DNA of 32,000 nucleotides from positions 83,054-115,053 of the forward strand of contig CAYHAA010000008.1 in NCBI GenBank assembly GCA_964354495.1. The letters run 5' to 3'. Both the position numbers and the translations under genes were made by a program. This DNA is from an uncultured archaeon. Lineage in GTDB: Archaea; Asgardarchaeota; Thorarchaeia; Thorarchaeales; Thorarchaeaceae. Of the stretch, positions 558-18,800 are shown one piece after another. The notes beneath the pieces are model-generated. The model searched no databases. It saw only the letters and a list, made by a program, of their open reading frames with translations, and was not told the origin of the DNA. Position 1 is the stretch's first letter, and each line of letters opens with the position of its first letter.

Positions 558-768
558 ACCGTTCATTGTAAGTTGTACAATCTTGGACACCAGAGCGTTG
601 TACCCCCAAGAAACGGCACTGGGTGGACTCTGCGAGGCCAGGTACGTGTCAGCACAACCTCAGAGTCCTGTCTCCCACGAGTGATATTTAAAGACCTACA
701 AGAATGGTTCACAGAAGTATCTAAGAGATGTCCAACTTTGTCCGAGTTTTCAGCAGCTGTTGCATACC
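558..768 (-). mobile_element. Short non-autonomous insertion element (MITE-like), copy 1, 208 nt plus one GGT repeat; intergenic
   Basis: Ends match 4110-4298 (37/44 and 59/66 nt identical by manual alignment). ACC (GGT on the minus strand) at 558-560 and 766-768. Subterminal inverted repeat at 573-588 / 730-745. Confidence 0.7.
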
Positions 769-3245: not shown

Positions 3246-3875
3246 TCAGTCTTGGTTCAAGAATGTCATCACCCTTTCAAGTAGATAACAGGGCGTCTTG
3301 CTCAATGTCTTGCTGACATTCCCCTTCGAGGTCTTTGTAGCCTCTGCAATCTCTGATGTTCGTTTCTTTTCCCATATGTAGTAGTAACAGTGCTGCAGCT
3401 GAGAGGCGCTGAGACCTACAAGTGTCGTGTAAAAGAGGAGAGAATTGACCACTGCATTGTTCTCATCACCTGAGGCCTTCTCATCGACCTTGAAGCCAGC
3501 TGACCTATTCATGTACTTCATGCTCTTTGTTTCATTCAAGGCCTCTCTTGCGTTCCAGAAGGCTGGTCCATCGCACTCATCAGCGCTCTCTTTTCGTATT
3601 ATGATCTCTCCTGTTCCCAGTCCAACACGGAACTCCAGCTCTTCCATCAGAAGCCTATGAAAGAGGAACACAATTGGTTGCCAGCTACTGACCAACAACT
3701 CAATGCTATCGCCCTGAGTTATAGCGGGCATGGCGAGGCAGTAGTCCTTGAAACGTTCGTATGTCTGGCTCAACATGCCGCGCATCTTCTCGTCCACTTT
3801 CCTCCGCTCACGAGCATTGACATCTCTTGATGCTACGATGTCAATAATGACTGCAATCAACGGCTCCTCACCCAA
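3246..3875 (-). CDS. SatD-family protein (nucleotide-cyclase-like palm domain plus C-terminal HTH)
   Basis: IIDIVASR, ITQGDSIELL, FRVGLGTGEI, DGPAFWNAREAL, then HTH-like TSEIAEATKTSKGNVSKTL. TTG start overlaps the upstream gene's stop. Confidence 0.8.
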   Translation of the reverse strand: MGEEPLIAVIIDIVASRDVNARERRKVDEKMRGMLSQTYERFKDYCLAMPAITQGDSIELLVSSWQPIVFLFHRLLMEELEFRVGLGTGEIIIRKESADECDGPAFWNAREALNETKSMKYMNRSAGFKVDEKASGDENNAVVNSLLFYTTLVGLSASQLQHCYYYIWEKKRTSEIAEATKTSKGNVSKTLSKTPCYLLERVMTFLNQD

Positions 3876-4551
3876 CTAGCAGAAATCTAAAGCTGCCCCA
3901 TGTCAACGCCAGCGCCATAGTGATACTCATGAACGTGCCGAGAATATACCAGTCCGCGCACGCACGATCAGTGGTTTCCTTATTCGAGTACCGGAAAATT
4001 GCCTTCCCAGCAACAATGACTGAGAGGAAGCTGAGGATTGTTGTGTATGACAGCGCGCTGTCAAAATATGCTATCAGAATTGCCAGGAATATCAGGCTCC
4101 TCTCCATGTACCGTTCATTGTAAGTTGGACAACCTTGGACGCCGGAGCGTTGTCCTCCCAGAAACGGCACTGGGAAAGAACTCCGCGAGGGCAGGCGTGT
4201 GTCGGAACACTCTCCTCTGTCTGTAGTGGGTCGTAGCATATGAACTCGTACAGCGAAATGTCCAAGTTCGTCCAAGTTTTCAGCAACTGCTGCACACCCC
4301 ATGAGATATCCTCCGTATTGGAGGCCGCCGCACTTAGACGCAATGTCTTCTTCATGCCCTCTTGCCAACCTTCCAAAGACTAGATCAATCAGTAGGCCGG
4401 GCAAGAACAGAGCCAAGAGGTACCCAGAGAGAATTGTGAGGAACTCTGTATTCAGTGAGGGTATCGGAAAGACTACAAGTAGAAACAGAGCAGTACAACT
4501 CACTACTGTCATTAGTAGACCAAGAAGTCGCTGAGACGCCTTCAGAAACAC
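3868..4551 (-). CDS. SatD-partner multi-pass membrane protein (DUF3307-associated C-terminal type), carrying a 62-codon in-frame insertion
   Basis: Hydrophobic N-terminus. Removing 4113-4298 restores GLQYGGYLMG-YMERSLIFLAIL...AGKAIFRY...ADWYILGTFMS, matching the family pattern G-x-x-I-G-x-L-E-R...A-K-S-I-F-R...E-Y-I-L-I-G-T-L (from memory). Confidence 0.8.
   Translation of the reverse strand: MFLKASQRLLGLLMTVVSCTALFLLVVFPIPSLNTEFLTILSGYLLALFLPGLLIDLVFGRLARGHEEDIASKCGGLQYGGYLMGCAAVAENLDELGHFAVRVHMLRPTTDRGECSDTRLPSRSSFPVPFLGGQRSGVQGCPTYNERYMERSLIFLAILIAYFDSALSYTTILSFLSVIVAGKAIFRYSNKETTDRACADWYILGTFMSITMALALTWGSFRFLLVG
4110..4298 (-). mobile_element. Short non-autonomous insertion element (MITE-like), copy 2, 186 nt plus one GGT repeat; intragenic and in-frame
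   Basis: ACC at 4110-4112 and 4296-4298. Inverted repeat TTGGACAACCTTGGAC (4125-4140) / GTCCAAGTTCGTCCAA (4260-4275). Homologous to 558-768. Interrupts a conserved protein motif. Confidence 0.75.
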
Positions 4552-8923: not shown

Positions 8924-9068
8924 GAGTATCACTCAGAGCTGCTGTTGGCGTACTGAAAACCAAAGCAATGTCCGTGACTGCTGTCACTCCCTCTATAAAA
9001 CCTTCGAACGGTGAAGGAAATACATTTGTAGAATGGAGTCATTCTAGAGTGCAATGGAATGAGTCATC

Positions 9069-9629
9069 ATGAAGACACTGATAGCATATGGGACACGATA
9101 CGGAGCAACAGCCGGCACTGCTGAAGAGATCTCTAAAGTACTTCAGGAACAAGGACACGATGTCCGAGTAGTTGATGTGAAGAAGGACAAGATCAAGAGC
9201 ATATCCGAATACGAACTAGTCATCATAGGAAGTGGTATGAGGATCTTCAGGTGGGTCGGTGAAGCTGAGGAATTCATCAAGAAGTTTCAAGACGAACTAA
9301 GACAGAAGAAGACCGCGATATTTGTGTCGTCGGGCGCACAGGCGATTCACAAGCATGACAATGACACTGAATCGATGAATACCGCTTGGACGAAGTACCT
9401 TGACGAGAAGGCAGAGAAGTTCTCCCTTCGACCAATCATGATGGCAATCTTTGGCGGTGTCTGGGACTACAACAAGATGGGCTTTCCCTTCAAGAAGACC
9501 ATGATGGCATTTCAGGAGAAGCTCAGAGAGGTTGGCATCGAAGAGACACATCCCGGTGTATATGACACGCGTGACTGGGAAGAGATCAGAAGCTGGGCAA
9601 GGGAGCTAGCGCAAAAAGCAAGCGGATGA
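9069..9629 (+). CDS. Flavodoxin-domain protein (HemG/Flavodoxin_5-like)
   Basis: MKTLIAYGTRYGATAGTAEEI, YELVIIGSG, YDTRDWEEIRSWA. Confidence 0.85.
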   Translation: MKTLIAYGTRYGATAGTAEEISKVLQEQGHDVRVVDVKKDKIKSISEYELVIIGSGMRIFRWVGEAEEFIKKFQDELRQKKTAIFVSSGAQAIHKHDNDTESMNTAWTKYLDEKAEKFSLRPIMMAIFGGVWDYNKMGFPFKKTMMAFQEKLREVGIEETHPGVYDTRDWEEIRSWARELAQKASG

Positions 9630-9724
9630 TCTTGGCTCATCCTGTGGCAGTTTCGTTGCGGGAGTCCGTAAGTCAGATATCTTTATCCTCTCCCTTGGGC
9701 AACGGTTTGGTGAGGTGCATTGAG

Positions 9725-10627
9725 TTGACAAGAGGACTAGTCTGCGTTGAGATCTATCTCCTCGCCGATGCAAATGTGCAGCTTGAAGAGGTCCTTGGAG
9801 AGGCTGGCTTCGCTGCGCTGGTCAGCGCGACGTACGACGATTCGAGTGAATTCCAGTTCCTCTTTGACACGGGTTATGGAACTCCCGCCTTAGAATATAA
9901 TGCTTGTATCATGAAGAAATCTCACAAACGAGACCTGTCCTCTATTGAGTTAATCATACTCAGTCATGGACATTGCGACCATGTGGCTGGAGTGCTGAAA
10001 GTCCTTTCACTGATCAAGAAACGAGTGCCTGTTCTATGTCATCCCGATGCGCTGCTGCACAAGATATTCACCTCTGATGATGGAAAGAAACACGAAGTCG
10101 GGATTCACGAGTACTATAGTGACTCTGAACTCAGAAGCAGTGCTAGGGTCATTACAACCCAAAGACCCTATCACATTGCCGATGGTATCATGACTACAGG
10201 GGTTGTGCGGAGAACAAACGACTTTGAAGAAATCTCGGGCGAACTACGGAAGATTGTGACAGTAAGAAACGGAAAGGAAACACCTGACCTCATCGAGGAC
10301 GACCTCTCGGTCATCTTTCACCTGAAGGATGGTTCAATTGTGATTCTTACAGGGTGTTGCCACTCTGGCATTGTGAACACAGTCAACCATGCGCTCTCGC
10401 TCACTGGTTCTTCATCTGTAGTCGGAATCGTGGGAGGCCTTCATCTTCATGATGCGTCAAGTGAGAGATTGAACAGCACTATTGAACATCTACGCAAATA
10501 TCCCCTCTCCGTTCTTGGAGCCTGTCACTGTACAGGGCTGAGAGGCCGTGCTGCTCTCATGTACGCCTTCGAAGACTCCTTCAAGGAAGTGAGCGCAGGA
10601 TCTCTGTTGAAGTTCCAGTCAAAATAG
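9725..10627 (+). CDS. MBL-fold metallo-hydrolase (MJ0448/dihydropterin-synthase-like)
   Basis: FLFDTG, ILSHGHCDHVAG, EDDLSV, LTGCCHSGIVN, VGGLHL, ACHCTG. Start placed at TTG 9725 after TGAGGTG. Confidence 0.85.
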   Translation: MTRGLVCVEIYLLADANVQLEEVLGEAGFAALVSATYDDSSEFQFLFDTGYGTPALEYNACIMKKSHKRDLSSIELIILSHGHCDHVAGVLKVLSLIKKRVPVLCHPDALLHKIFTSDDGKKHEVGIHEYYSDSELRSSARVITTQRPYHIADGIMTTGVVRRTNDFEEISGELRKIVTVRNGKETPDLIEDDLSVIFHLKDGSIVILTGCCHSGIVNTVNHALSLTGSSSVVGIVGGLHLHDASSERLNSTIEHLRKYPLSVLGACHCTGLRGRAALMYAFEDSFKEVSAGSLLKFQSK

Positions 10628-10699
10628 ATTGCTGGAATCGCCGCAGCCTCTTTCCGATGTCAGGATGACCACAATGTTCTATCTCTCTATCGAAGACTC

Positions 10700-12283
10700 C
10701 TACGAATGCATACCAAGCCCAAGTAGCATCTTGCATGTCTTGACTTGATTCTCTATGACCTTCGCCCTATGCAGGTTGTCAAAGAATACCTTGATGTGAG
10801 AGGTATAATTGTCCGACCTCTTGCCGCCATACTCTCCGAATATGTGCCCAGTATTCTCTAGGTCAACAACTCCATAGAGCAGCGAGAGCGACACTATGAG
10901 GTCAACGAGGCCCCTATCTGTTGTTTCCACCACCTGAGGAATCTCATTTGGCGGCTCAAGAATGAAGCACCCTACATTCCCTGCGTTTCTACAGTGGTCT
11001 TCCATCTGCAGGTCGGAAGAGAGCAGGGTGACAGTTGCCTGTTTATCTCTCGCAAACTCGCTTAGCGATTTCACAATGACTCTGTCTGCCTCTTCGGAAT
11101 CATGAGGAAGTGGTTCGCACTTGGCTCTGTCATGAGTCGGCTGCTGCACGAGGAGGTGAAACTGAGAGCTAGCCATCTTGGCAATCCTTGTCTCAAGCGT
11201 GTTCCGATTGTGAAACTCGTCGAAGAAACGCCTCTTGTCAGGACCACTCATGGCTTTCACCGAGCCAATCCAGTCCTGTCCGTATTTGTCTGACACATTC
11301 CGGTCTATCTCTTGCACGACCCCTTCAGATGTGACGAAGAGAAGTTCTCCTCTGCGAATCTGATTGGCCGCCATCAAAGACTCAAGACATGACACAAATC
11401 CACTGTAAAACAGGTTTGAGTCTAATGAGATGTACCATCGCCCCGAAGCGTGTCTGGGGTCGCTCTGTCTCTTGTATCCCTCGACGAAGAACTTGCGGAA
11501 CTCATCGCCTGATCTGTAGTCAATGAGCCCCGCGTAGCAGAGTGAGGCACGTAGTTGTGAGTAACTAGGGTGGTCCCAACCTGTTTCACCACATTCTCTC
11601 AGGTCCTCGGAGTACTTTGCTCTGTCAGTCAGCATGTGGGCTTGTTTCTTAGATAGGTCCAGCTCCATGAGATCCATCTCCATGAGCGGATTCCTGACTT
11701 TCAGTCTGACATGCTCATTGTACCCATAGTTCAGGACGACTGTTAAGAATTCCTTTGACATCTCCAGTCCTTGCCATCTGGTATCAGTCACACGGATTAT
11801 GTCTTTTCTGCACTCTATGTTCTGAGCCAGGTCTCTCAGGAGCTGAATCCTCTTGGGTATCATGAGATAGGGCTTCGCGGCGTCCTCTGTGGACTCGATG
11901 GTCAAATAGTAGATGTGCTTGAGAAACTTGCCTGAGAATCCTAATAGACTACCTGCGACCAGTGCCTTTCTGCCACCAGTGATGTTCAATGCGACTTCGG
12001 AGCCGCTATCTTTGAGACTCTGGATGATACGCTCTATCTCGTCCCGTGTTGCGCGCATATCGAAGTTGGGAACCCTGACCTTCTCTATGTTCCGCTCGCC
12101 ATACTCCTCTTGGATTGTCTTCATGCCCTCAACAACAGGATTGATATCACTCTCATACTGAGCCTCGTACAGGAGGATGATTCTGTCAGGTCTGAAGTCT
12201 GTTTCAAGCATGACTGCATGGTAGGAATTCACGACCCCCCAGCCGCTTCTGCCCATGAGTGTTACGAAGACCTGTTCCGTCAA
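10700..12283 (-). CDS. CARF-domain plus PIN-domain protein (predicted nucleotide-ligand-regulated RNase)
   Basis: N-terminal VFVTLMGRSGWGVVNSY and ALNITGGRKAL are CARF motifs. C-terminal ISLDSNLF, VVQEID, ADRVIV and LLSSD form the PIN acidic tetrad. Confidence 0.75.
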   Translation of the reverse strand: MTEQVFVTLMGRSGWGVVNSYHAVMLETDFRPDRIILLYEAQYESDINPVVEGMKTIQEEYGERNIEKVRVPNFDMRATRDEIERIIQSLKDSGSEVALNITGGRKALVAGSLLGFSGKFLKHIYYLTIESTEDAAKPYLMIPKRIQLLRDLAQNIECRKDIIRVTDTRWQGLEMSKEFLTVVLNYGYNEHVRLKVRNPLMEMDLMELDLSKKQAHMLTDRAKYSEDLRECGETGWDHPSYSQLRASLCYAGLIDYRSGDEFRKFFVEGYKRQSDPRHASGRWYISLDSNLFYSGFVSCLESLMAANQIRRGELLFVTSEGVVQEIDRNVSDKYGQDWIGSVKAMSGPDKRRFFDEFHNRNTLETRIAKMASSQFHLLVQQPTHDRAKCEPLPHDSEEADRVIVKSLSEFARDKQATVTLLSSDLQMEDHCRNAGNVGCFILEPPNEIPQVVETTDRGLVDLIVSLSLLYGVVDLENTGHIFGEYGGKRSDNYTSHIKVFFDNLHRAKVIENQVKTCKMLLGLGMHS

Positions 12284-12352
12284 GTCTCAATCTCCTCCAA
12301 ATTCTTGGTAGGATTCCCAAAGCGTGTACTTGCAGAGGCTGACAACATCAGT

Positions 12353-13855
12353 CTATATCTCCAGAACGTCATCTCTCTTCATGACCATGACTTTTCGATG
12401 CCACTCTTTGAACATCTCGGGATGTTCTGTGTGCATCGGTATCACTATCTCTGGTTTCACTCTCTCAATCAGATCTTTCAACTCACGCCCTGAGAGATGC
12501 CCTGAGCAGTGCTTCATCGCAGGTTCTCCAAGACCAAAGTGTTTCAACCATCTCTTGACCCGCTCGAGTTCTATCGCGCCCTCTTCGTCATAGGGTTCTG
12601 AGGCCGACCAGATGAACTTGCTGCCCTGTTTTGGCTTGAGATCATGAAGGATGCCCAAATCGTAGAAGCTGCATGTCACAACATACTCCTTCTGCGCGCT
12701 CGCCACTTCCTGCGGCGTCACCAGGACAGAGTCTTGAAACACATACTCTCTCACAGGTTCCGGATAGCTGTAGGAGTAATCCCGCAATTGCGCCTCCTCG
12801 TCGTAATCTGAATTCGCCCAGATTCCCCATGACTTTCGAGGGAGCAATACCTCGATGTTCTTCGAGTCAACTGCAGGAATGTCCTTCGTCTGCAGCATCT
12901 TCGAGAGAAAATAGGCCTGCTTGGGGCTGATCAGTAGTTTCCGTCCACTGGCACGAGCAGCGTTACTGATTGTAACCATCCGGCTGATATCTCGTTGGGC
13001 GTAGTTCACAAGGACCAACGCCTTGGAGTCCTCGATCGTATCTGCCATTTCTTTCTCAAGGTTCTTCTCGGTCATGCCAGGCGCATCTTCTGCACGAGTG
13101 CCCTCACAGAGGAGCACTCTCAAGTTGGAATCCTCAAGTGCAGACGCGAACTCCTTTGATGATGAAGCAAAGTACCCATGAAACCTGAGGTCTCCTGTGT
13201 ATGCGACAGCACCGCAGTCTGTGTTCAGAATATAAGCGTCCGCCCCTGGCAGGCTATGGTCGACCTGATACGCTGTCGCCTCGATGTTGCCGACTTTGAA
13301 AGACCTCTTGCGCTGCGTCTTGACAAAGGGACGTTCGATCTTTTCATCTTCAACATCTGTCTTGGTCGCTCTCTTCAGACCCCCGCCCCTCTGTCGGGAC
13401 GTCATCTTGAAGGACGGGTACCAGGTGCAAAACTCCTGTTCATCGCCCGTTATTGTTTCCTGCAGGTACTTCATGATGATCCATGTTGTTTCAGAGCCGA
13501 CCAGCGTAATATCTGGTCGCAGATATGGAACCATGCCGACATGGTCCATATGCGCATGGCTGATCAGGACTGCCTCAACGCTCTTCTTCTTACTAGACGC
13601 TAGGGCGGGATTAGATGAGTTCATGTGTTCGAGATGGTCCTCACGGTAGATTCCCTTGACTGCAGGGAGAAGCCCGAATGAGATGTATTCCTCGATGATG
13701 GCGAAACCTCTAGCCCCAAGAAACTCGTCGTAGTATTTTCTCTGTTGGCCAAAGCTGAGGCCGAAATCGAGGAAGACTCGCGTTCCGCCGTCCTCTATTA
13801 GAATCTTGTTTCCGCCAACCTCATCGACTCCGCCATGAAATACGAACTTGGTCAT
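12353..13855 (-). CDS. MBL/beta-CASP hydrolase (RNase J-related, archaeal type)
   Basis: FHGGVDEVGGNKILI, LDFG, ISHAHMDHVG, VDHSLPGA, YTGDLRFHG, CEGT, HCSGH, IPMHTEH. Start placed at MTKF (13855). Confidence 0.85.
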   Translation of the reverse strand: MTKFVFHGGVDEVGGNKILIEDGGTRVFLDFGLSFGQQRKYYDEFLGARGFAIIEEYISFGLLPAVKGIYREDHLEHMNSSNPALASSKKKSVEAVLISHAHMDHVGMVPYLRPDITLVGSETTWIIMKYLQETITGDEQEFCTWYPSFKMTSRQRGGGLKRATKTDVEDEKIERPFVKTQRKRSFKVGNIEATAYQVDHSLPGADAYILNTDCGAVAYTGDLRFHGYFASSSKEFASALEDSNLRVLLCEGTRAEDAPGMTEKNLEKEMADTIEDSKALVLVNYAQRDISRMVTISNAARASGRKLLISPKQAYFLSKMLQTKDIPAVDSKNIEVLLPRKSWGIWANSDYDEEAQLRDYSYSYPEPVREYVFQDSVLVTPQEVASAQKEYVVTCSFYDLGILHDLKPKQGSKFIWSASEPYDEEGAIELERVKRWLKHFGLGEPAMKHCSGHLSGRELKDLIERVKPEIVIPMHTEHPEMFKEWHRKVMVMKRDDVLEI

Positions 13856-14000
13856 ACTGCAAAGACCACTCTCCAACCAAGAGTGACATACAAGACCGTG
13901 ACCTCCCATATAAGAAGTTCTGGTCGAACAAGACCGCTCTGTAGGAGAGACCTCATATGTGTCCGAAGGACTGCACATGCCCTCACGTCTATCGTTCGAG

Positions 14001-14795
14001 TCAGAGCAGGTCCTTGAGGAAGAGTCGCGTACGTTCAGTGTGCTCGGTCATGACGCTCCGAATGACGATAGGGGAGACAGTGATGTTACCGTTTCGAGAA
14101 ACCTCCCTGGCATCATGACTTTCATCCGAGAACTTCTCCCCGCCACGAATCCAGTAGCATGGCTTTTCGTAGGGATCAAGCCTTTTCTCTAGCTTGTTCC
14201 GTACAACAGCATTACTGGGTTCCACGACCACCAGCCGACTCTGTCCTGAGTATGCCGCGGGGAAGTTCACGTTCAGGCCGTCAACACCAGAGGGCAGCCC
14301 CTGTTTCAGAACATGGCCTATGAGCCGGGCGCTCGTGTGGCATACATGTTCAACTCCCTCACTCACACCGGCTTCAGTGAACCAGTGGACCGGGTCCGCT
14401 AGGTAGGAGAGAGCGACACCTGGGTATCCCTGCAGGGCTGCTTCGAAGATGGCGCCGACTGTGCCGCTCGTGAGCATCCTGTGGTATCCGACATTTGCAC
14501 CCGAGTTTATCCCTGAGACGAACATGTCGATTCTCTTGACCAATGAGAGGGCGATAATCACCGAGTCTGCAGGAAACCCGTCGTGGACTATCATGCGATA
14601 GCTGCCTGTATTCACGTCGCTCACTATCCTGAGAGGCCGACCAAGCGACAGAGCCTTGCTGGCACCACTTCGCTGCTGGTTGGGGACCACCACAGTGAGG
14701 TCCATTTTGGGAGTCAGCGTTTCAGCTAGCCTAAGCAGGCCGATACTGCTTGGGCCATCATCATTTGTTAGGCAGACTGTAGGCATTGGTTCCAC
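14001..14795 (-). CDS. surE: 5'/3'-nucleotidase SurE
   Basis: LTNDDG, VVPNQQRSGAS, HDGFPADSV, SGINSGANVG, SGTVGAIFEA, LNVNFP, ITVSP. Confidence 0.92.
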   Translation of the reverse strand: MEPMPTVCLTNDDGPSSIGLLRLAETLTPKMDLTVVVPNQQRSGASKALSLGRPLRIVSDVNTGSYRMIVHDGFPADSVIIALSLVKRIDMFVSGINSGANVGYHRMLTSGTVGAIFEAALQGYPGVALSYLADPVHWFTEAGVSEGVEHVCHTSARLIGHVLKQGLPSGVDGLNVNFPAAYSGQSRLVVVEPSNAVVRNKLEKRLDPYEKPCYWIRGGEKFSDESHDAREVSRNGNITVSPIVIRSVMTEHTERTRLFLKDLL

Positions 14796-14843
14796 CAGCT
14801 TCCTGTTCTCTGACTTCGCCTTATGTGCTCGTCGATGATTGAT

Positions 14844-15071
14844 TCAGCAACCATGAATGCGTTCCAGAAGATATCCACCGAACGCCCCATAGGCGATCCA
14901 GTGGACGAATTTCCATCCCTGACTTGTCATAGTATTCAGTGCATAGAGTGCCTTCTCCCAGTCCGGGCCTCGCATTCCAGAAGTCACCCTGATGAACACA
15001 TATTTCCCTGTTATCTCCATGAAGTCTACAGTTTCCTTCACAAAGTCTTCAACATCAATCACATCTCTCAT
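14844..15071 (-). CDS. Small hypothetical protein
   Basis: 75-aa ORF MRDVIDVEDF...GGYLLERIHGC, co-oriented upstream of surE. Confidence 0.55.
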   Translation of the reverse strand: MRDVIDVEDFVKETVDFMEITGKYVFIRVTSGMRGPDWEKALYALNTMTSQGWKFVHWIAYGAFGGYLLERIHGC

Positions 15072-15151
15072 ACTGAACACCATCGATTCTGGATGTTGCT
15101 CTCAACAAGAGACCGGAATATATGTTGTTTCCCGAATTCAGTTTGAGCCAA

Positions 15152-15212
15152 AGAGAGGAAAAGAAATTCGGATGCCTCCTCAATCCCACTTGAACTACAT
15201 CTGCGTCTCTTG
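15152..15212. repeat. Intergenic repeat family B, degenerate copy
   Basis: AACTACATCTGCGTCTCTTG (15193-15212) is an 18/20 match to 4746-4765, preceded by AGAGAGG...CCTCCTC. Confidence 0.55.
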
Positions 15213-15242
15213 GGGATACGGGAAAGATTCATGGAATACTCT

Positions 15243-15539
15243 ATGAGCAATAGAGGAAATATCTCTAGTAGGGAAGATCTGGTAGAAAAGACAGAGGGCA
15301 AAGTCGAGCTACACATAAGAAAGAGGATGGGTTTCTCTGGATTTGCGCTTGGAGTAGCACTCTAGTTCTTTCTGATAGCCATCAGCCCTCTATTCCCTTA
15401 CATCCCTCTCATGGAATATGTTCTCTGGTTCCTATTTCCACGCTATCCGTTTCCATGGAACTATATCATGATCTTCGTCACTTCTCTCATTTGGGGTTCA
15501 ATACTCTATTTCATCCCCTACAACAAGTCTAAGTTTTGA
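15243..15539 (+). pseudogene. Small membrane protein ORF interrupted by one in-frame TAG (15363-15365)
   Basis: Manual translation MSNRGNISSREDLVEKTEGKVELHIRKRMGFSGFALGVAL*FFLIAISPLFPYIPLMEYVLWFLFPRYPFPWNYIMIFVTSLIWGSILYFIPYNKSKF. The hydrophobic helix continues straight through the stop. Confidence 0.55.
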
Positions 15540-15809
15540 TTACGAGATCATTAGTACGCACTGGGCCACGTACTCAACTTGGAGGGATAGGCTGCAATTT
15601 AGTGGCCAATTTGGCAGTAAACAAACAGGTCTCTCCAAAAAAGAAACACGGCCATTAAGCCAGAACGCTTATGACTCTCTTTTCCTAGCTGTTTCGGCAT
15701 TCAAGTGGATGCAACAAGTCAAGGTGATGGAATTCCATCACCTTTGGTAGTGCATTATCACATATCATTTGTTTCTTGCGCATTCATTGTATAGGTTAGT
15801 GAGGGAGAG

Positions 15810-18800
15810 ATGCAGAGTACGAAGCATGCCATAGTGGTACTTAGCGTGATCTTCATTTTCATGTTTGTAGTGTCTGACGTCTACACGGTTCAAGTCTGGT
15901 CCACTATGAAGGGGGCAGATCCCAACATACTTGAGAACGACACTGAGGCAGACATCGGCGCCCCAAGAGCAGCATTCTCACTTGCTAGCCTCGTGGAAGA
16001 GCTGATGTCAGTAACAACTGATACCAGAGATGCCGACATTGACGGACTTGTCGATTCAATCGAGGCCATCATTGGCACCAGTCCAATCAATAATGATAGC
16101 GACTATGATAGGGTACGAGATGATTTTGAGGTTTGGAATGGCACCGACCCATTGGAGCCTGACTCAAACTTCGATGGATTACCAGATTACTTTGAGCTGA
16201 AGGCAACAAATCCGGATGTCGATGGCGATGGAGTCGACAATGCTTGGGATTTTGATAATGACAATGATGGCGTCAATGACGCAGCTGACATATCTCCCTT
16301 CTGTTATTCTGCTGTGCAGGACAGCTTCCATATGGAGATCGTGACTGGCGGCAATCCCACATATGTCACTCTCCAACTAAGACCACGCGACCCGGCACAC
16401 CTCAAGTTGTTCTACCAATATTGGGATTGGCCTTACGACTCTCAGGGTTCTATGAAAGATATGGACTATTCAGAAGAGGACGTCAGAGCAATTCCACAAC
16501 TCAATATTGCTACTGACAGCTCTCTAAGTCAGTCAGCCGTGAGCGACTATGGAATGCTTGTGACGCCAACTGGCTTCCGTATTCCCCTGAATCCCATATG
16601 GGATAATGGTGATCTGCTAGCATTCGAGTGCAAGATATTCTTCCCGCAGTCTGCTCAGACGAGTTGGGCCATTGATATTGATATGTTTTGGAGAATTATG
16701 GGAAATACAGACATTGAGGCTGTAGCACTCGGTGCCAGCAATGGTATGTATGTAGTCCTTGGAGAAAACAATTCTGCAATCGCTGATGGTGATAATGCTC
16801 ACGCTGGAACTCTACAATGGATTGACTTGGGCGATGGTAATGTCTCAATCAAGACCTTCAATGGAGCATACCTGTCACTGGCAGACAATACTACAATTGG
16901 TGTTTCGTCCATCCTTGACGATAATGCTAGATTTGCAGTGACAGAAGTAGATGACGAAATCGCGCTCAAGGCAATCAATGGACTGTACATCACACTAAGC
17001 GAAGATAATCACCTTCTTGCTCAAGGCGATAACCTCTCTGAAGCAGAGAGATTTCATATTGTTGATTTAGGCTACCAATCAGAATGGACAACACTGGTCA
17101 CATACCCTGAACCATTCATGCTCGCTGGATTCACAGTCGAAGAGAACTTTGGCTCCAATCTCGGACTATTCTATAGCTCGAACAGGGATTGTATTATCGC
17201 AGCTGACATGGTGATGACATACGAGTTCATGAGGAATGCCACGAACCTGCTAACGGACCAGTCAGGTATCCTTGCTAACAACGGCATTGACGTGGATAGC
17301 CTCTCTTCATCATTCACGCATAGAGATGAGGCATTCAAGAGCATGAGTAATGACATGCTGCCCGATGTGCTTAGGTCCCTGCCCGATGGCGAAATTCTCC
17401 CAGTCATCATTGCAAACATCGACCGCTCACGAATTCTAGAGATGTCTGAGATTCTCTCTGGCGTGATGACGCTTGACGACTCGTTTTTCCTCAACGTCAC
17501 CAGATTCCCTGTTCTGACTGTCAGGACTCTCAAAACGAATTTCTATAATACATCCAGCTTCGGAGCTCTAGCGCTCGATGATGTTATGTCTGAAGTGGTC
17601 AGCTGGGGCCTAAGTGATACAGCAACTTTCAATATCCTGACCATGATGATGAAGTGGTTTAATGGAGAGCAACTCGTTACAAGCATCGATGATATTCCAT
17701 TGTCATTCGGAACGCCAGATGATGAATGCTTCAACATGGCACAGAATATCATAATTGGTAGTCTAGAAGCATTAGGCGGTCTCTCTGAAATAGTATGGAT
17801 CTGGAAAGCATTCAAAGAGATGAAGGTCCTAGAAAAAGGTGGCTTCGTGTTCAACTCAATAGTAAGGTCTCTTAAGACTGGGAGCACGAGCCTGATCGGA
17901 GCCTGGGCGAAGACGAGCACGAGCCTTGCGAAGATCAACAAGGGCTTCACAAAGGCTTTCAAATCGTTCCAAAAGGCCCTAATCGTAGCCGGGATTGTTC
18001 TCGACGTGGGCCTTTCAATCTATGCGGCTATACTGATTGCTGATAGCATTGGAGGTCGCTTAGGATCTGAGATTGGAGCCATATATGGTGTAGCGGGCGC
18101 TGCGTTCGCAGTTGTTGGCGCACTCCTTCTCTTTGCCATCGGGGAGATACCTTATGTGGGATGGCTAATTGCTTTGGGGCTTGTCCTTGCAGACTTGATT
18201 GGCGGCTACTCGGACAAGCTCATAGAATGGCTCACCGGAGCTATATTCGGTGATCAGGAGGATGTGCACAAAGTTGAGCTTGCTGATCCTGGGATTGAGG
18301 TTGTGAGACCACCATCAGCGACAACCATTGACCATGATGGGAACGGTCTTGATGTAGGAGATACAATCGAGATCATCGTGCGTTTCCGCGCAACAGTAGA
18401 GGACACAGTCAATAGTACAATTCCAGTGGACAGCTACATTAGACCATACATTCAGCTCTTCGTACCTCAGGGCGAGGTTTCATCTTCTGGATACCCTGCT
18501 GTAGATGACATGAAAGTGGAGAAGGGCGATTTCTGGAAATCAGAGACCTATGACACAGCTGCGTGGGCAACGCCCAGTCTGCCAATGGTGAATTTTCCAG
18601 TTCTGGTGTTGCTCAAGTATGATTACAGACTTCGTTATGATTGGCGACACTTAGTCATGGGCATGGCATACTGCGATCATACAGACTGGGAGGAGGGCTC
18701 TGGTGTCGAACAACTGACTAGATATCACTTCGATATCATGCCACAGACAATTGATGACTTTGTGAGATGGGGCGGAATCAGGTTGCTTGACTCTGATGCA

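Follow-up and report, generated by a model that had tools for sequence, protein, structure and literature searches.

Gene-less IS607-type elements in a genus of Thorarchaeota carry a promoter-like box and a covarying structure that is probably a TnpB guide RNA

The closest described relatives of the elements considered here belong to the IS607 family, whose members insert at GG, with (G)GG preferred and without duplication of the target, and whose transposase TnpA nucleates on helically phased 9-bp direct words lying 20-60 bp from the left tip; the right end of IS1535 has two such words 10-28 bp from its tip (Chen et al. 2018, PMC6188088). The IS607 TnpA of C. botulinum prefers TGGG, and the TnpB of that system needs the same TGGG as its target-adjacent motif (TAM); the omega RNA scaffold ends in ..UCGG, and the right end, TCGG, is spared through its -3 position (Zedaveinyte et al., bioRxiv 10.1101/2023.11.20.567912). 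Among IS200/IS605 elements, the palindrome-associated transposable elements (PATEs) are without genes, still carry an omega RNA, and need both TnpA and TnpB to be provided in trans (Meers et al. 2023, 10.1101/2023.03.14.532601), and standalone omega RNAs are cited as having been shown to work in trans (Altae-Tran 2021, as cited in PMC10691335). In archaea, movement of the 320 bp element SMN1 of Sulfolobus islandicus is attributed to the transposase of ISC1733 (Berkner and Lipps 2007, as cited in PMC3718332), and aCas1 has been proposed as the transposase of Asgard aCas1-TnpB loci (Makarova 2020; Altae-Tran 2023, PMC10691335). We describe here a family of small mobile elements in a Thorarchaeota (Asgard) archaeon, two copies of which, A and B, lie in the window, the whole 32,000-nt stretch of DNA that was analysed (G000:C8:83054-115053; the genome, G000, has 3.3 Mb in 51 contigs and is 97.7% complete). 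An earlier note on this DNA had read the two copies as a non-autonomous IS607-like element, with IS110/IS1111-type ends as the alternative. The known kinds behind the family are indeed IS607 non-autonomous elements, together with omega-RNA-bearing PATEs; what goes beyond the earlier reading is a promoter-like box followed by a structured, covarying RNA that is probably a TnpB guide RNA.

The family is real and genus-wide, with copy numbers well outside what chance would give. Searching the whole of G000 with blastn and nhmmer recovers about 20 full or nearly full copies (177-212 nt), several fragments, and six more copies cut by contig ends. The element is gene-less and 177-222 nt long (~190 nt), and all copies share identical start and end bases, reading GGGT...AATGAACGGT on the minus strand of the window, between unrelated flanks. 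A covariance model (CM) spanning the promoter to the right end finds full-length copies (>95 bits) in 14 of the 27 other species genomes of the genus, with up to 28 matches in one of them, and 85 copies across the genus genomes. The earlier note had reckoned with the outcome that neither further copies nor a parent element would turn up; both were found. Insertions with the same flanks are common to G000 and its sister species G012 at C6:71395 (with G012 C78) and C3:19012 (with G012 C6), and most others are not common to the two; from this pattern we conclude that the family is old yet has been mobile since the species split. The true copy number exceeds the assembled number, and six contigs break within near-identical copies. 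These contig ends lie inside A-type copies (C6:152723-152816, C42:1-94, C35:10552-10606, C25:2-117, C36:4-54, and C8:122123-122173) that are 94-98% identical to copy A.

We orient the element as its parent is oriented, on the minus strand of the window, so that copy A has its left end (LE) at 769 and its right end (RE) at 558. Both copies then read flank-GGGT...CGGT-flank, with A preceding the GGGT in copy A and G in copy B, which accounts for the GGT reported earlier in direct orientation at both ends. The pairwise identities given in the earlier note are reproduced exactly (59/66 at the window-left end and 37/44 at the window-right end), as are its lengths of 208 and 186 nt, which are net values because four nucleotides shared with the target are subtracted from 212 and 190. 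Sixty independent insertions with differing flanks yield the target-site logo that the note had proposed to build: W-GGGT(A/T)(G/T).. on the left and ..ACAATGAACGGT- on the right, or as a whole W-GGGT ... AATGAACGG(T)-random (hyphens mark the junctions). The target is thus (A/T)GGGT with an invariant GG: the base before GGG is A in 38 insertions, T in 13, G in seven, and C in two, each G of the left GG is present in 59/60, the two positions of the right GG in 60/60 and 56/60, and the last T of the right end in 55/60. There is no target-site duplication (TSD), and in this set the flanks beyond the junction positions carry no information. Terminal inverted repeats are absent, the tips GGGTATGCA and ACCGTTCAT being unrelated. 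Each end does contain two TTGGAC-type words 10 bp apart, in helical phase and inverted between the ends, as had been noted; those at the left end are putative binding sites for TnpA. The 'degenerate third TTG' that the earlier note placed outside the pair is not supported as a separate protein site: that stretch is the invariant right-end tip ACAATGAAC, and a third GGACA-like word, further in, is the partner of a motif word in an RNA helix.

Empty sites agree with these boundaries. The membrane-protein gene that holds copy B is found without it in relatives and in one environmental strain. In three congeners the gene is whole, with GGAT at the site, and among contigs from four sequencing runs of DNA or unknown type that were compared at the window, one from a public run, ~95% identical to the window, joins 4109 to 4296 and skips exactly 186 nt with a 3-nt ambiguity, in agreement with the net length of the insertion. 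Its empty site, CATGT-ACCC-CATGA, is GGGT on the element strand; the contig is a single one of low depth with a shorter side of 38 nt, and its length and position agree with the congeners. Insertion adds the element and nothing else to the empty site, and GGT, present once before, is present twice afterwards, as a conservative exchange at a 2-bp core would give. GG is the published core of IS607 (PMC6188088; bioRxiv 10.1101/2023.11.20.567912).

When both ends were used as queries, as the earlier note had suggested, a parent with tnpA and tnpB was found. Parent and small element share the ends GGGT-N5-ACAGCT..TGACAAAGTTGGACA and ..TGTCCAAGTTTGTNCAAC..ACAATGAACGGT (the ends of the TnpA-bearing loci were aligned by eye and with nhmmer), and the elements between those ends encode an IS607-family serine transposase, identified with the NCBIfam equivalog NF033518 (cut-off 110 bits) plus Pfam domains, and TnpB. 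An IS607 TnpA lies between or beside these ends at at least five loci (C24, C22, G015:C20, G015:C189, and G023:C205; 160-195 bits). In the C24 element the left end (GGGTGGTATACAGCT..TTTGACAAAGTTGGACA, from ~10673) has the same design as that of the small element and is followed by an uninterrupted 200-codon tnpA (NF033518, 160 bits; Pfam Resolvase and MerR/HTH_17); the element is an internal-deletion copy, in that a 329-codon antisense open reading frame (ORF) corresponds to the last 320 residues of a 1663-residue protein. It is the only tnpA-bearing copy completely assembled in G000. A second tnpA in that genome, on C22 (NF033518, 186 bits), follows this same left end and is truncated where the contig stops, and intact long TnpB ORFs with related right ends are present on C1 (729 aa) and C3 (713 aa). 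Two complete parents come from another species of the genus, G015 (Table 1). The cargo of the one on G015:C189 (a sense 1432-aa ORF, a Rad51/RadA-like ATPase, and a 245-aa ORF) differs from that on G015:C20, and the cargo ORFs of 1432-1663 aa match no Pfam family. TnpA above the cut-off is present in six genomes, all six of which also have the small element, and in 0/12 genomes without any CM match at E<=1e-5, a co-occurrence that is descriptive only, as the metagenome-assembled genomes (MAGs) of the genus are incomplete and mutually related. The shared ends with a TnpA-encoding parent, the lack of a TSD, the GG junctions, and the empty sites all support the earlier reading, and we regard it as highly probable that the small element is a non-autonomous member of the IS607 family; at the DNA level, TnpA-driven movement at (A/T)GGGT is strongly supported. 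We also observed two derivatives of intermediate size, G000:C17:19845-20223 (379 nt) and C46:2533-3017 (485 nt), that have both ends and a piece of tnpB 3' coding sequence and that look like steps between the full element and the gene-less forms.

The element has a constant layout: behind the left end come a variable insert (0-32 nt) by which subfamilies are defined, a conserved box, a free spacer of ~25 nt, and ~110 conserved nucleotides running to the right tip. Over 82 distinct copies from 15 genomes, the set used for all covariation counts, the box has an information content of 1.31 bits per column, the spacer 0.35, and most of the rest 1.25-1.65. Variants of the box are TTTATATA, TTTAAATA, and CTTATATA, and both the sequence and the distance are as expected of an archaeal TATA element; we refer to it as promoter-like, of the archaeal TATA type. 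RNAalifold applied to 17 copies predicts three hairpins (H1 to H3), which hold with compensatory changes in the 82 copies, and a scan for covarying columns suggested two long-range helices (Table 1). One helix proposed by RNAalifold, 110-113/118-121, is poorly paired (82.6%) and was replaced by 73-77/113-117, and a fold of the whole element, in which left-end words pair with right-end words, was rejected as an RNA feature because a promoter is predicted between them and the words are transposase sites. Across the five helices 94.7% of the alignment cells are paired, compared with 88.0% in shuffled alignments, and 144 cells are changed on both sides, compared with 44, a comparison that overstates the significance because the copies are related and the 144 changes may go back to roughly ten events. 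The five helices have a covariation score of 0.230, whereas shuffled alignments give 0.112 and reach the observed score in 0/500 cases, and sliding the partners gives 0.03-0.075. Changes at single pairs are illustrated by columns 106/134 (GC 42, UA 19, CG 18), 84/103 (CG 63, UA 17), 74/116 (AU 50, GC 17, GU 9), 88/99 (GC 63, UA 8, GU 7), and 44/67 (UA 61, AU 10). The long-range helices were outside the model behind the alignment, and a structure-free MAFFT alignment gives 94.4% paired and the same counts.

The structured part lies at the right end and reads outward, and since TnpB guide RNAs are encoded at the right end and read outward we favor an omega-RNA interpretation. The structure extends from ~110 nt inside the element to the right-end tip ..AAUGAACGG, with the promoter-like box upstream on the same strand. 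At 40-65 bits the CM also matches tnpB 3' ends together with the adjoining right ends on C24, C17, C46, and C1, and 34 tnpB-linked right ends of the genus have H2, H3, and the tail ACAATGAACGG in common, directly after NAARNI codons. H2 varies in a compensatory manner in these tnpB-linked ends too (CCCAG/CUGGG, CCCAC/GUGGG, and UCCAG/CUGGA). Homology to them is demonstrable for the last ~70 nt only, that is, H2, H3, and the tail; upstream of H2, by comparison of the sequences, the coding stretch appears to be replaced in the small element by the non-coding hairpin H1 and the promoter-like box. A counterpart of helix 52-56/118-122 was sought in the tnpB-linked right ends, between AACAUC codons and the H3 loop, with a mixed outcome: C24 and G015:C20 differ in a compensatory-looking way and others break the pairing.

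We propose the following account. The parent's serine TnpA would bind the helically phased TTGGAC words near both ends and exchange strands at the GG within GGGT on the left and CGGT on the right, so that the element would be excised as a circle and inserted at other (A/T)GGGT sites without target duplication; the absence of copy B from the ~95%-identical strain and the partial sharing of insertions with the sister species are indirect signs of such mobility. From a promoter within each copy a pseudoknotted scaffold of ~110 nt, with ..AAUGAACGG as its end, would be transcribed together with the flank beyond it, the neighbouring host DNA serving as the guide; in copy A this guide would extend into minus-strand positions 540-557. 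The omega RNA could be loaded onto a TnpB encoded at another site of the genome, which would cut the vacated site, (A/T)GGG plus flank, after excision. Recombination would bring the element back, in the manner demonstrated for bacterial IS605/IS607, with the ACGG of the right end, instead of GGGG, sparing the occupied site. What is observed here is the family with its ends, target, and empty sites, a parent that encodes TnpA and TnpB, conservation of the box, and covariation in the structure; from these we infer that TnpA acts on the ends and that the RNA is transcribed and loaded onto TnpB, and the TAM and homing as well. That each copy encodes a working omega RNA for TnpB in trans seems to us reasonably probable, to judge from homology and covariation, and we would say much the same of the whole account of a non-autonomous IS607 element with a self-promoted omega RNA used by TnpB in trans.

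Several observations weigh against this account. The TATA-like box of copy B is degenerate (TTCATATG), and among the sequencing runs listed for positions 300-1300 of the window there is no RNA run. Single-sequence folding energies are no better than those of shuffles (z -1.6 to +0.3), and the 5' ~45 nt of the scaffold (helix 1 and linker) do not resemble in sequence the 3' end of the tnpB coding region whose place they would take. Exchange at a GG core fits the junctions, but by sequence GG is indistinguishable from the overlapping GT. For 8 of the 14 other genomes with copies of the element, which are incomplete MAGs, the search yielded no TnpA. Finally, the TnpB of C24, whose linked right end is the most like that of the small element among the TnpBs of G000, lacks its first ~200 residues, so the nuclease using these RNAs would be the more distant TnpB of C1 or C3 or an unassembled copy. 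As to the guides themselves, a search for second genomic matches of the 17-nt presumed guides gives the flanks of the copies themselves and fuzzy matches at noise level only, with no sign of targets in trans.

The alternative that survives best is a plain non-autonomous IS607 element, the interior of which is transposase-binding DNA only and gives no functional RNA. It would draw on the finding that IS607-family TnpA covers 70-80 bp of an end (PMC6188088), and the overlap of H3 with a TTGGAC word and the unremarkable single-sequence folding energies are in keeping with it. However, compensatory double changes in five helices, two of them long-range and crossing, would be meaningless for a helix-turn-helix protein that reads double-stranded DNA, and it is because such crossing helices are hard to explain in that way that we take the structure to act in RNA. 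Nor does this alternative explain the conserved TATA-like island and the variable spacer, and the varied word at the right end (GTCC/GTAC/GTGC) tracks its RNA partner rather than the left-end words. We consider it unlikely.

An RNA could also be made that is not a guide for TnpB, acting instead as an antisense or regulatory RNA or allowing the element to be removed from host transcripts as an IStron or archaeal intron would be. Copy B is sense-oriented within a gene whose frame stays open, which is what such a reading would look for, and IS607 IStrons are known that combine an intron with an omega RNA (10.1101/2023.11.20.567912). Against this, a scan of the whole window with Rfam at E<=1 matched zero families, introns included, and an internal promoter makes little sense for an intron. 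Moreover, omega RNAs are encoded at the tnpB 3' end and adjoining right end, and it is to this region that the 3' part of the RNA is homologous; the ..ACGG at the boundary parallels the UCGG end of the characterised IS607 omega RNA. We give a non-guide RNA little credence relative to TnpB guidance, and judge it very unlikely; an intron-like reading of copy B, in frame and in sense, was likewise rejected.

Similarly slight are the prospects of a model in which the giant cargo protein of the parent, and not the serine TnpA, is the mover. It takes its lead from the proposal that aCas1 is the transposase of repeat-flanked Asgard TnpB loci (PMC10691335), and the parents do carry an ORF of 1432-1663 aa that belongs to no Pfam family. 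The 60 insertions, with no target duplication and with GG at both junctions and in the target, nevertheless have the signature of serine recombination. Cas1-type integration, as in casposons and CRISPR adaptation, duplicates the target. In addition, the two complete parents share their ends and tnpA and differ in cargo, and the C24 copy keeps tnpA with most of the giant gene deleted.

An IS110/IS1111-type or IS200/IS605-type (Y1, PATE) element, for which one could cite the missing terminal inverted repeats and TSD, the fixed target motif, the structured ends, and the structured bridge RNA encoded by IS110 elements, is extremely improbable, and the alternative in the earlier note fails where its main inference holds, because an IS607 tnpA lies between these ends or beside the left end at the five or more loci named above, and 97.7%-complete G000 has no match to the IS110-type DEDD transposase (PF01548, which control genomes do match) or to the Y1 transposase (PF01797).

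Table 1. Positions of copies A and B, their parts and neighbors in the window, of the long-range helices in the RNA alignment, and of tnpA-bearing parent elements
Feature	Position	Strand	Details
Copy A, non-autonomous IS607-type element	558-769	minus	212 nt, net insertion 208 nt; nhmmer 152 bits; CM R1 129 bits
Copy A LE	729-769	minus	terminus GGGTATGCAACAGCTGC, then two TTGGAC-type words (730-735, 740-745), 10 bp apart, 22-41 bp from tip; same layout in parent LE
Copy A RE	558-588	minus	tip ..ACAATGAACGGT; TTGGAC-type words 573-578 and 583-588, 13-31 bp from tip
Copy A TATA-like box	685-692	minus	TTTAAATA (minus strand), ~25 nt upstream of first RNA helix
Copy A putative omega-RNA scaffold	558-668	minus	H1, linker, H2, H3, two long-range helices, tail ..ACAAUGAACGG; covariation; CM also matches tnpB 3' ends plus RE
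Copy B	4110-4299	minus	190 nt, net insertion 186 nt; LE 4255-4299, words 4260 and 4270; RE words 4125 and 4135; CM 127 bits
Copy B putative scaffold	~4110-4220	minus	
Copy B TATA-like box	4237-4244	minus	degenerate (TTCATATG)
Host membrane-protein reading frame interrupted by copy B	3868-4551	minus	227-aa ORF; empty sites in G020, G019, G004, G018
Older third copy, degenerate right-end fragment	777-872	plus	orientation opposite to copy A; nhmmer hmm 82-179, E 2.3e-8
Long-range helix, linker CAGAG with CUCUG in H3 loop	columns 73-77/113-117		
Long-range helix, GACAC in H1 loop with GUGUC	columns 52-56/118-122		
C24 element	G000:C24:10673-13864 (L031)		RE ..TGTCCAAGTTTGTACAACTTACAATGAACGGT ends 13864 after tnpB-like ORF
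Complete parent	G015:C20:571-8588 (L127)		8,018 bp; tnpA 206 aa; antisense 1663-aa ORF; tnpB 712 aa; ends T-GGGT.. and ..CAACGGT-
Complete parent	G015:C189 ~8961-18320 (L126)		~9.4 kb; same ends, tnpA, enlarged tnpB

Some further features of the window are worth recording. Copy B lies in sense orientation inside the membrane-protein gene, and the 227-codon frame is kept open across the 186-nt insert. Copy A is part of an insertion cluster: the older right-end fragment is 8 nt from its left end, and a full copy lies upstream at G000:C8:82270-82448, 606 nt before the window. ARAGORN finds no tRNA in the window. A palindrome, GGGAGCAATATTGCTCCC, beside one copy was considered and dropped, as it has a single exact occurrence in the genome.

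The family offers a natural data set for an unstudied Asgard TnpB system, with more than 80 copies, exact ends, a target motif, and empty sites, from which a likely TAM of (A/T)GGG, a covariation-supported scaffold fold, and dozens of natural guides can be derived, all open to direct assays of the E. coli type. It would indicate that guide-RNA-only elements are not confined to bacterial IS200/IS605, where they are known, and that they arose in archaea and in the serine-recombinase (IS607) branch too, with a promoter of their own, and it bears on how the Asgard 'aCas1-TnpB' elements move. In its fullest form the proposal is of a 'guide-only' selfish gene: an IS607-type mini-transposon in which a non-coding hairpin replaces the tnpB-coding part of the omega RNA, which has gained an archaeal promoter, and which is present in dozens of copies per genome, each providing a trans-encoded, enlarged Asgard TnpB with a guide of its own. 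The more than 60 insertions would then also show that a serine TnpA acting at (A/T)GGG, and not Cas1, moves the so-called aCas1-TnpB transposons of Asgard archaea. Taken jointly, these claims have in our view about an even chance of being correct. On a practical level, six contig ends are assembly breaks due to the element and at least one gene is split by it, and masking it is advisable in annotation.

The configuration closely resembles that of the IS607 family as known from H. pylori IS607, M. tuberculosis IS1535, and the C. botulinum IStron. In common with these the Thorarchaeal element lacks terminal inverted repeats and a TSD, shows GG at either junction as well as in its target and prefers (N)GGG, and has at least two ~9-bp words in helical phase (here 13-41 bp from the tips), a parent encoding a MerR-HTH/resolvase TnpA and TnpB, and NCGG at the right end as opposed to NGGG in the target or TAM. 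The (A/T)GGG of its left junction and the ACGG of its right end follow the same logic as TGGG and TCGG in C. botulinum. It departs from the named members in being gene-less, 177-222 bp long, and resident in an Asgard host, and in having a parent of 8-9 kb with large cargo genes and an enlarged TnpB (~712 aa).

In the literature searched we found no report of guide-RNA-only elements for IS607 or for archaea, which is not proof of their absence. The likeness to PATEs and standalone omega RNAs is in the retention of both ends and of a guide-RNA scaffold with no genes, and in the reliance on TnpA and TnpB that would come in trans. PATEs, however, are partnered by a Y1 HUH transposase acting on single strands with palindromic DNA ends, whereas the partner here is a serine recombinase, the 5' half of the scaffold is replaced by a non-coding hairpin, and there is a putative dedicated promoter of the TATA type. 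Among archaeal elements, SMN1 is without inverted repeats, and ISC1733 carries a resolvase-type orfA. As far as SMN1 is described in the source citing it, the two are alike as archaeal non-autonomous elements dependent on the transposase of a two-gene insertion sequence; SMN1 differs in coming from a different phylum, and no guide RNA or promoter is described for it in the literature found.

The parents also resemble the published aCas1-TnpB loci, in which an enlarged Asgard TnpB stands beside a giant gene, the locus is flanked by repeats, and a variable stretch follows a conserved T downstream of tnpB. Those loci are probably the same or a related kind of parent element, the 1663-aa ORF here having no Pfam match. 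Unlike the published interpretation of these loci, the ends, the target, and the small derivatives described here point to an IS607 serine TnpA, and the signature of 60 insertions, the shared tnpA, and the variable cargo argue, at the level of sequence comparison, that in this lineage at least it is the serine TnpA that moves the element.
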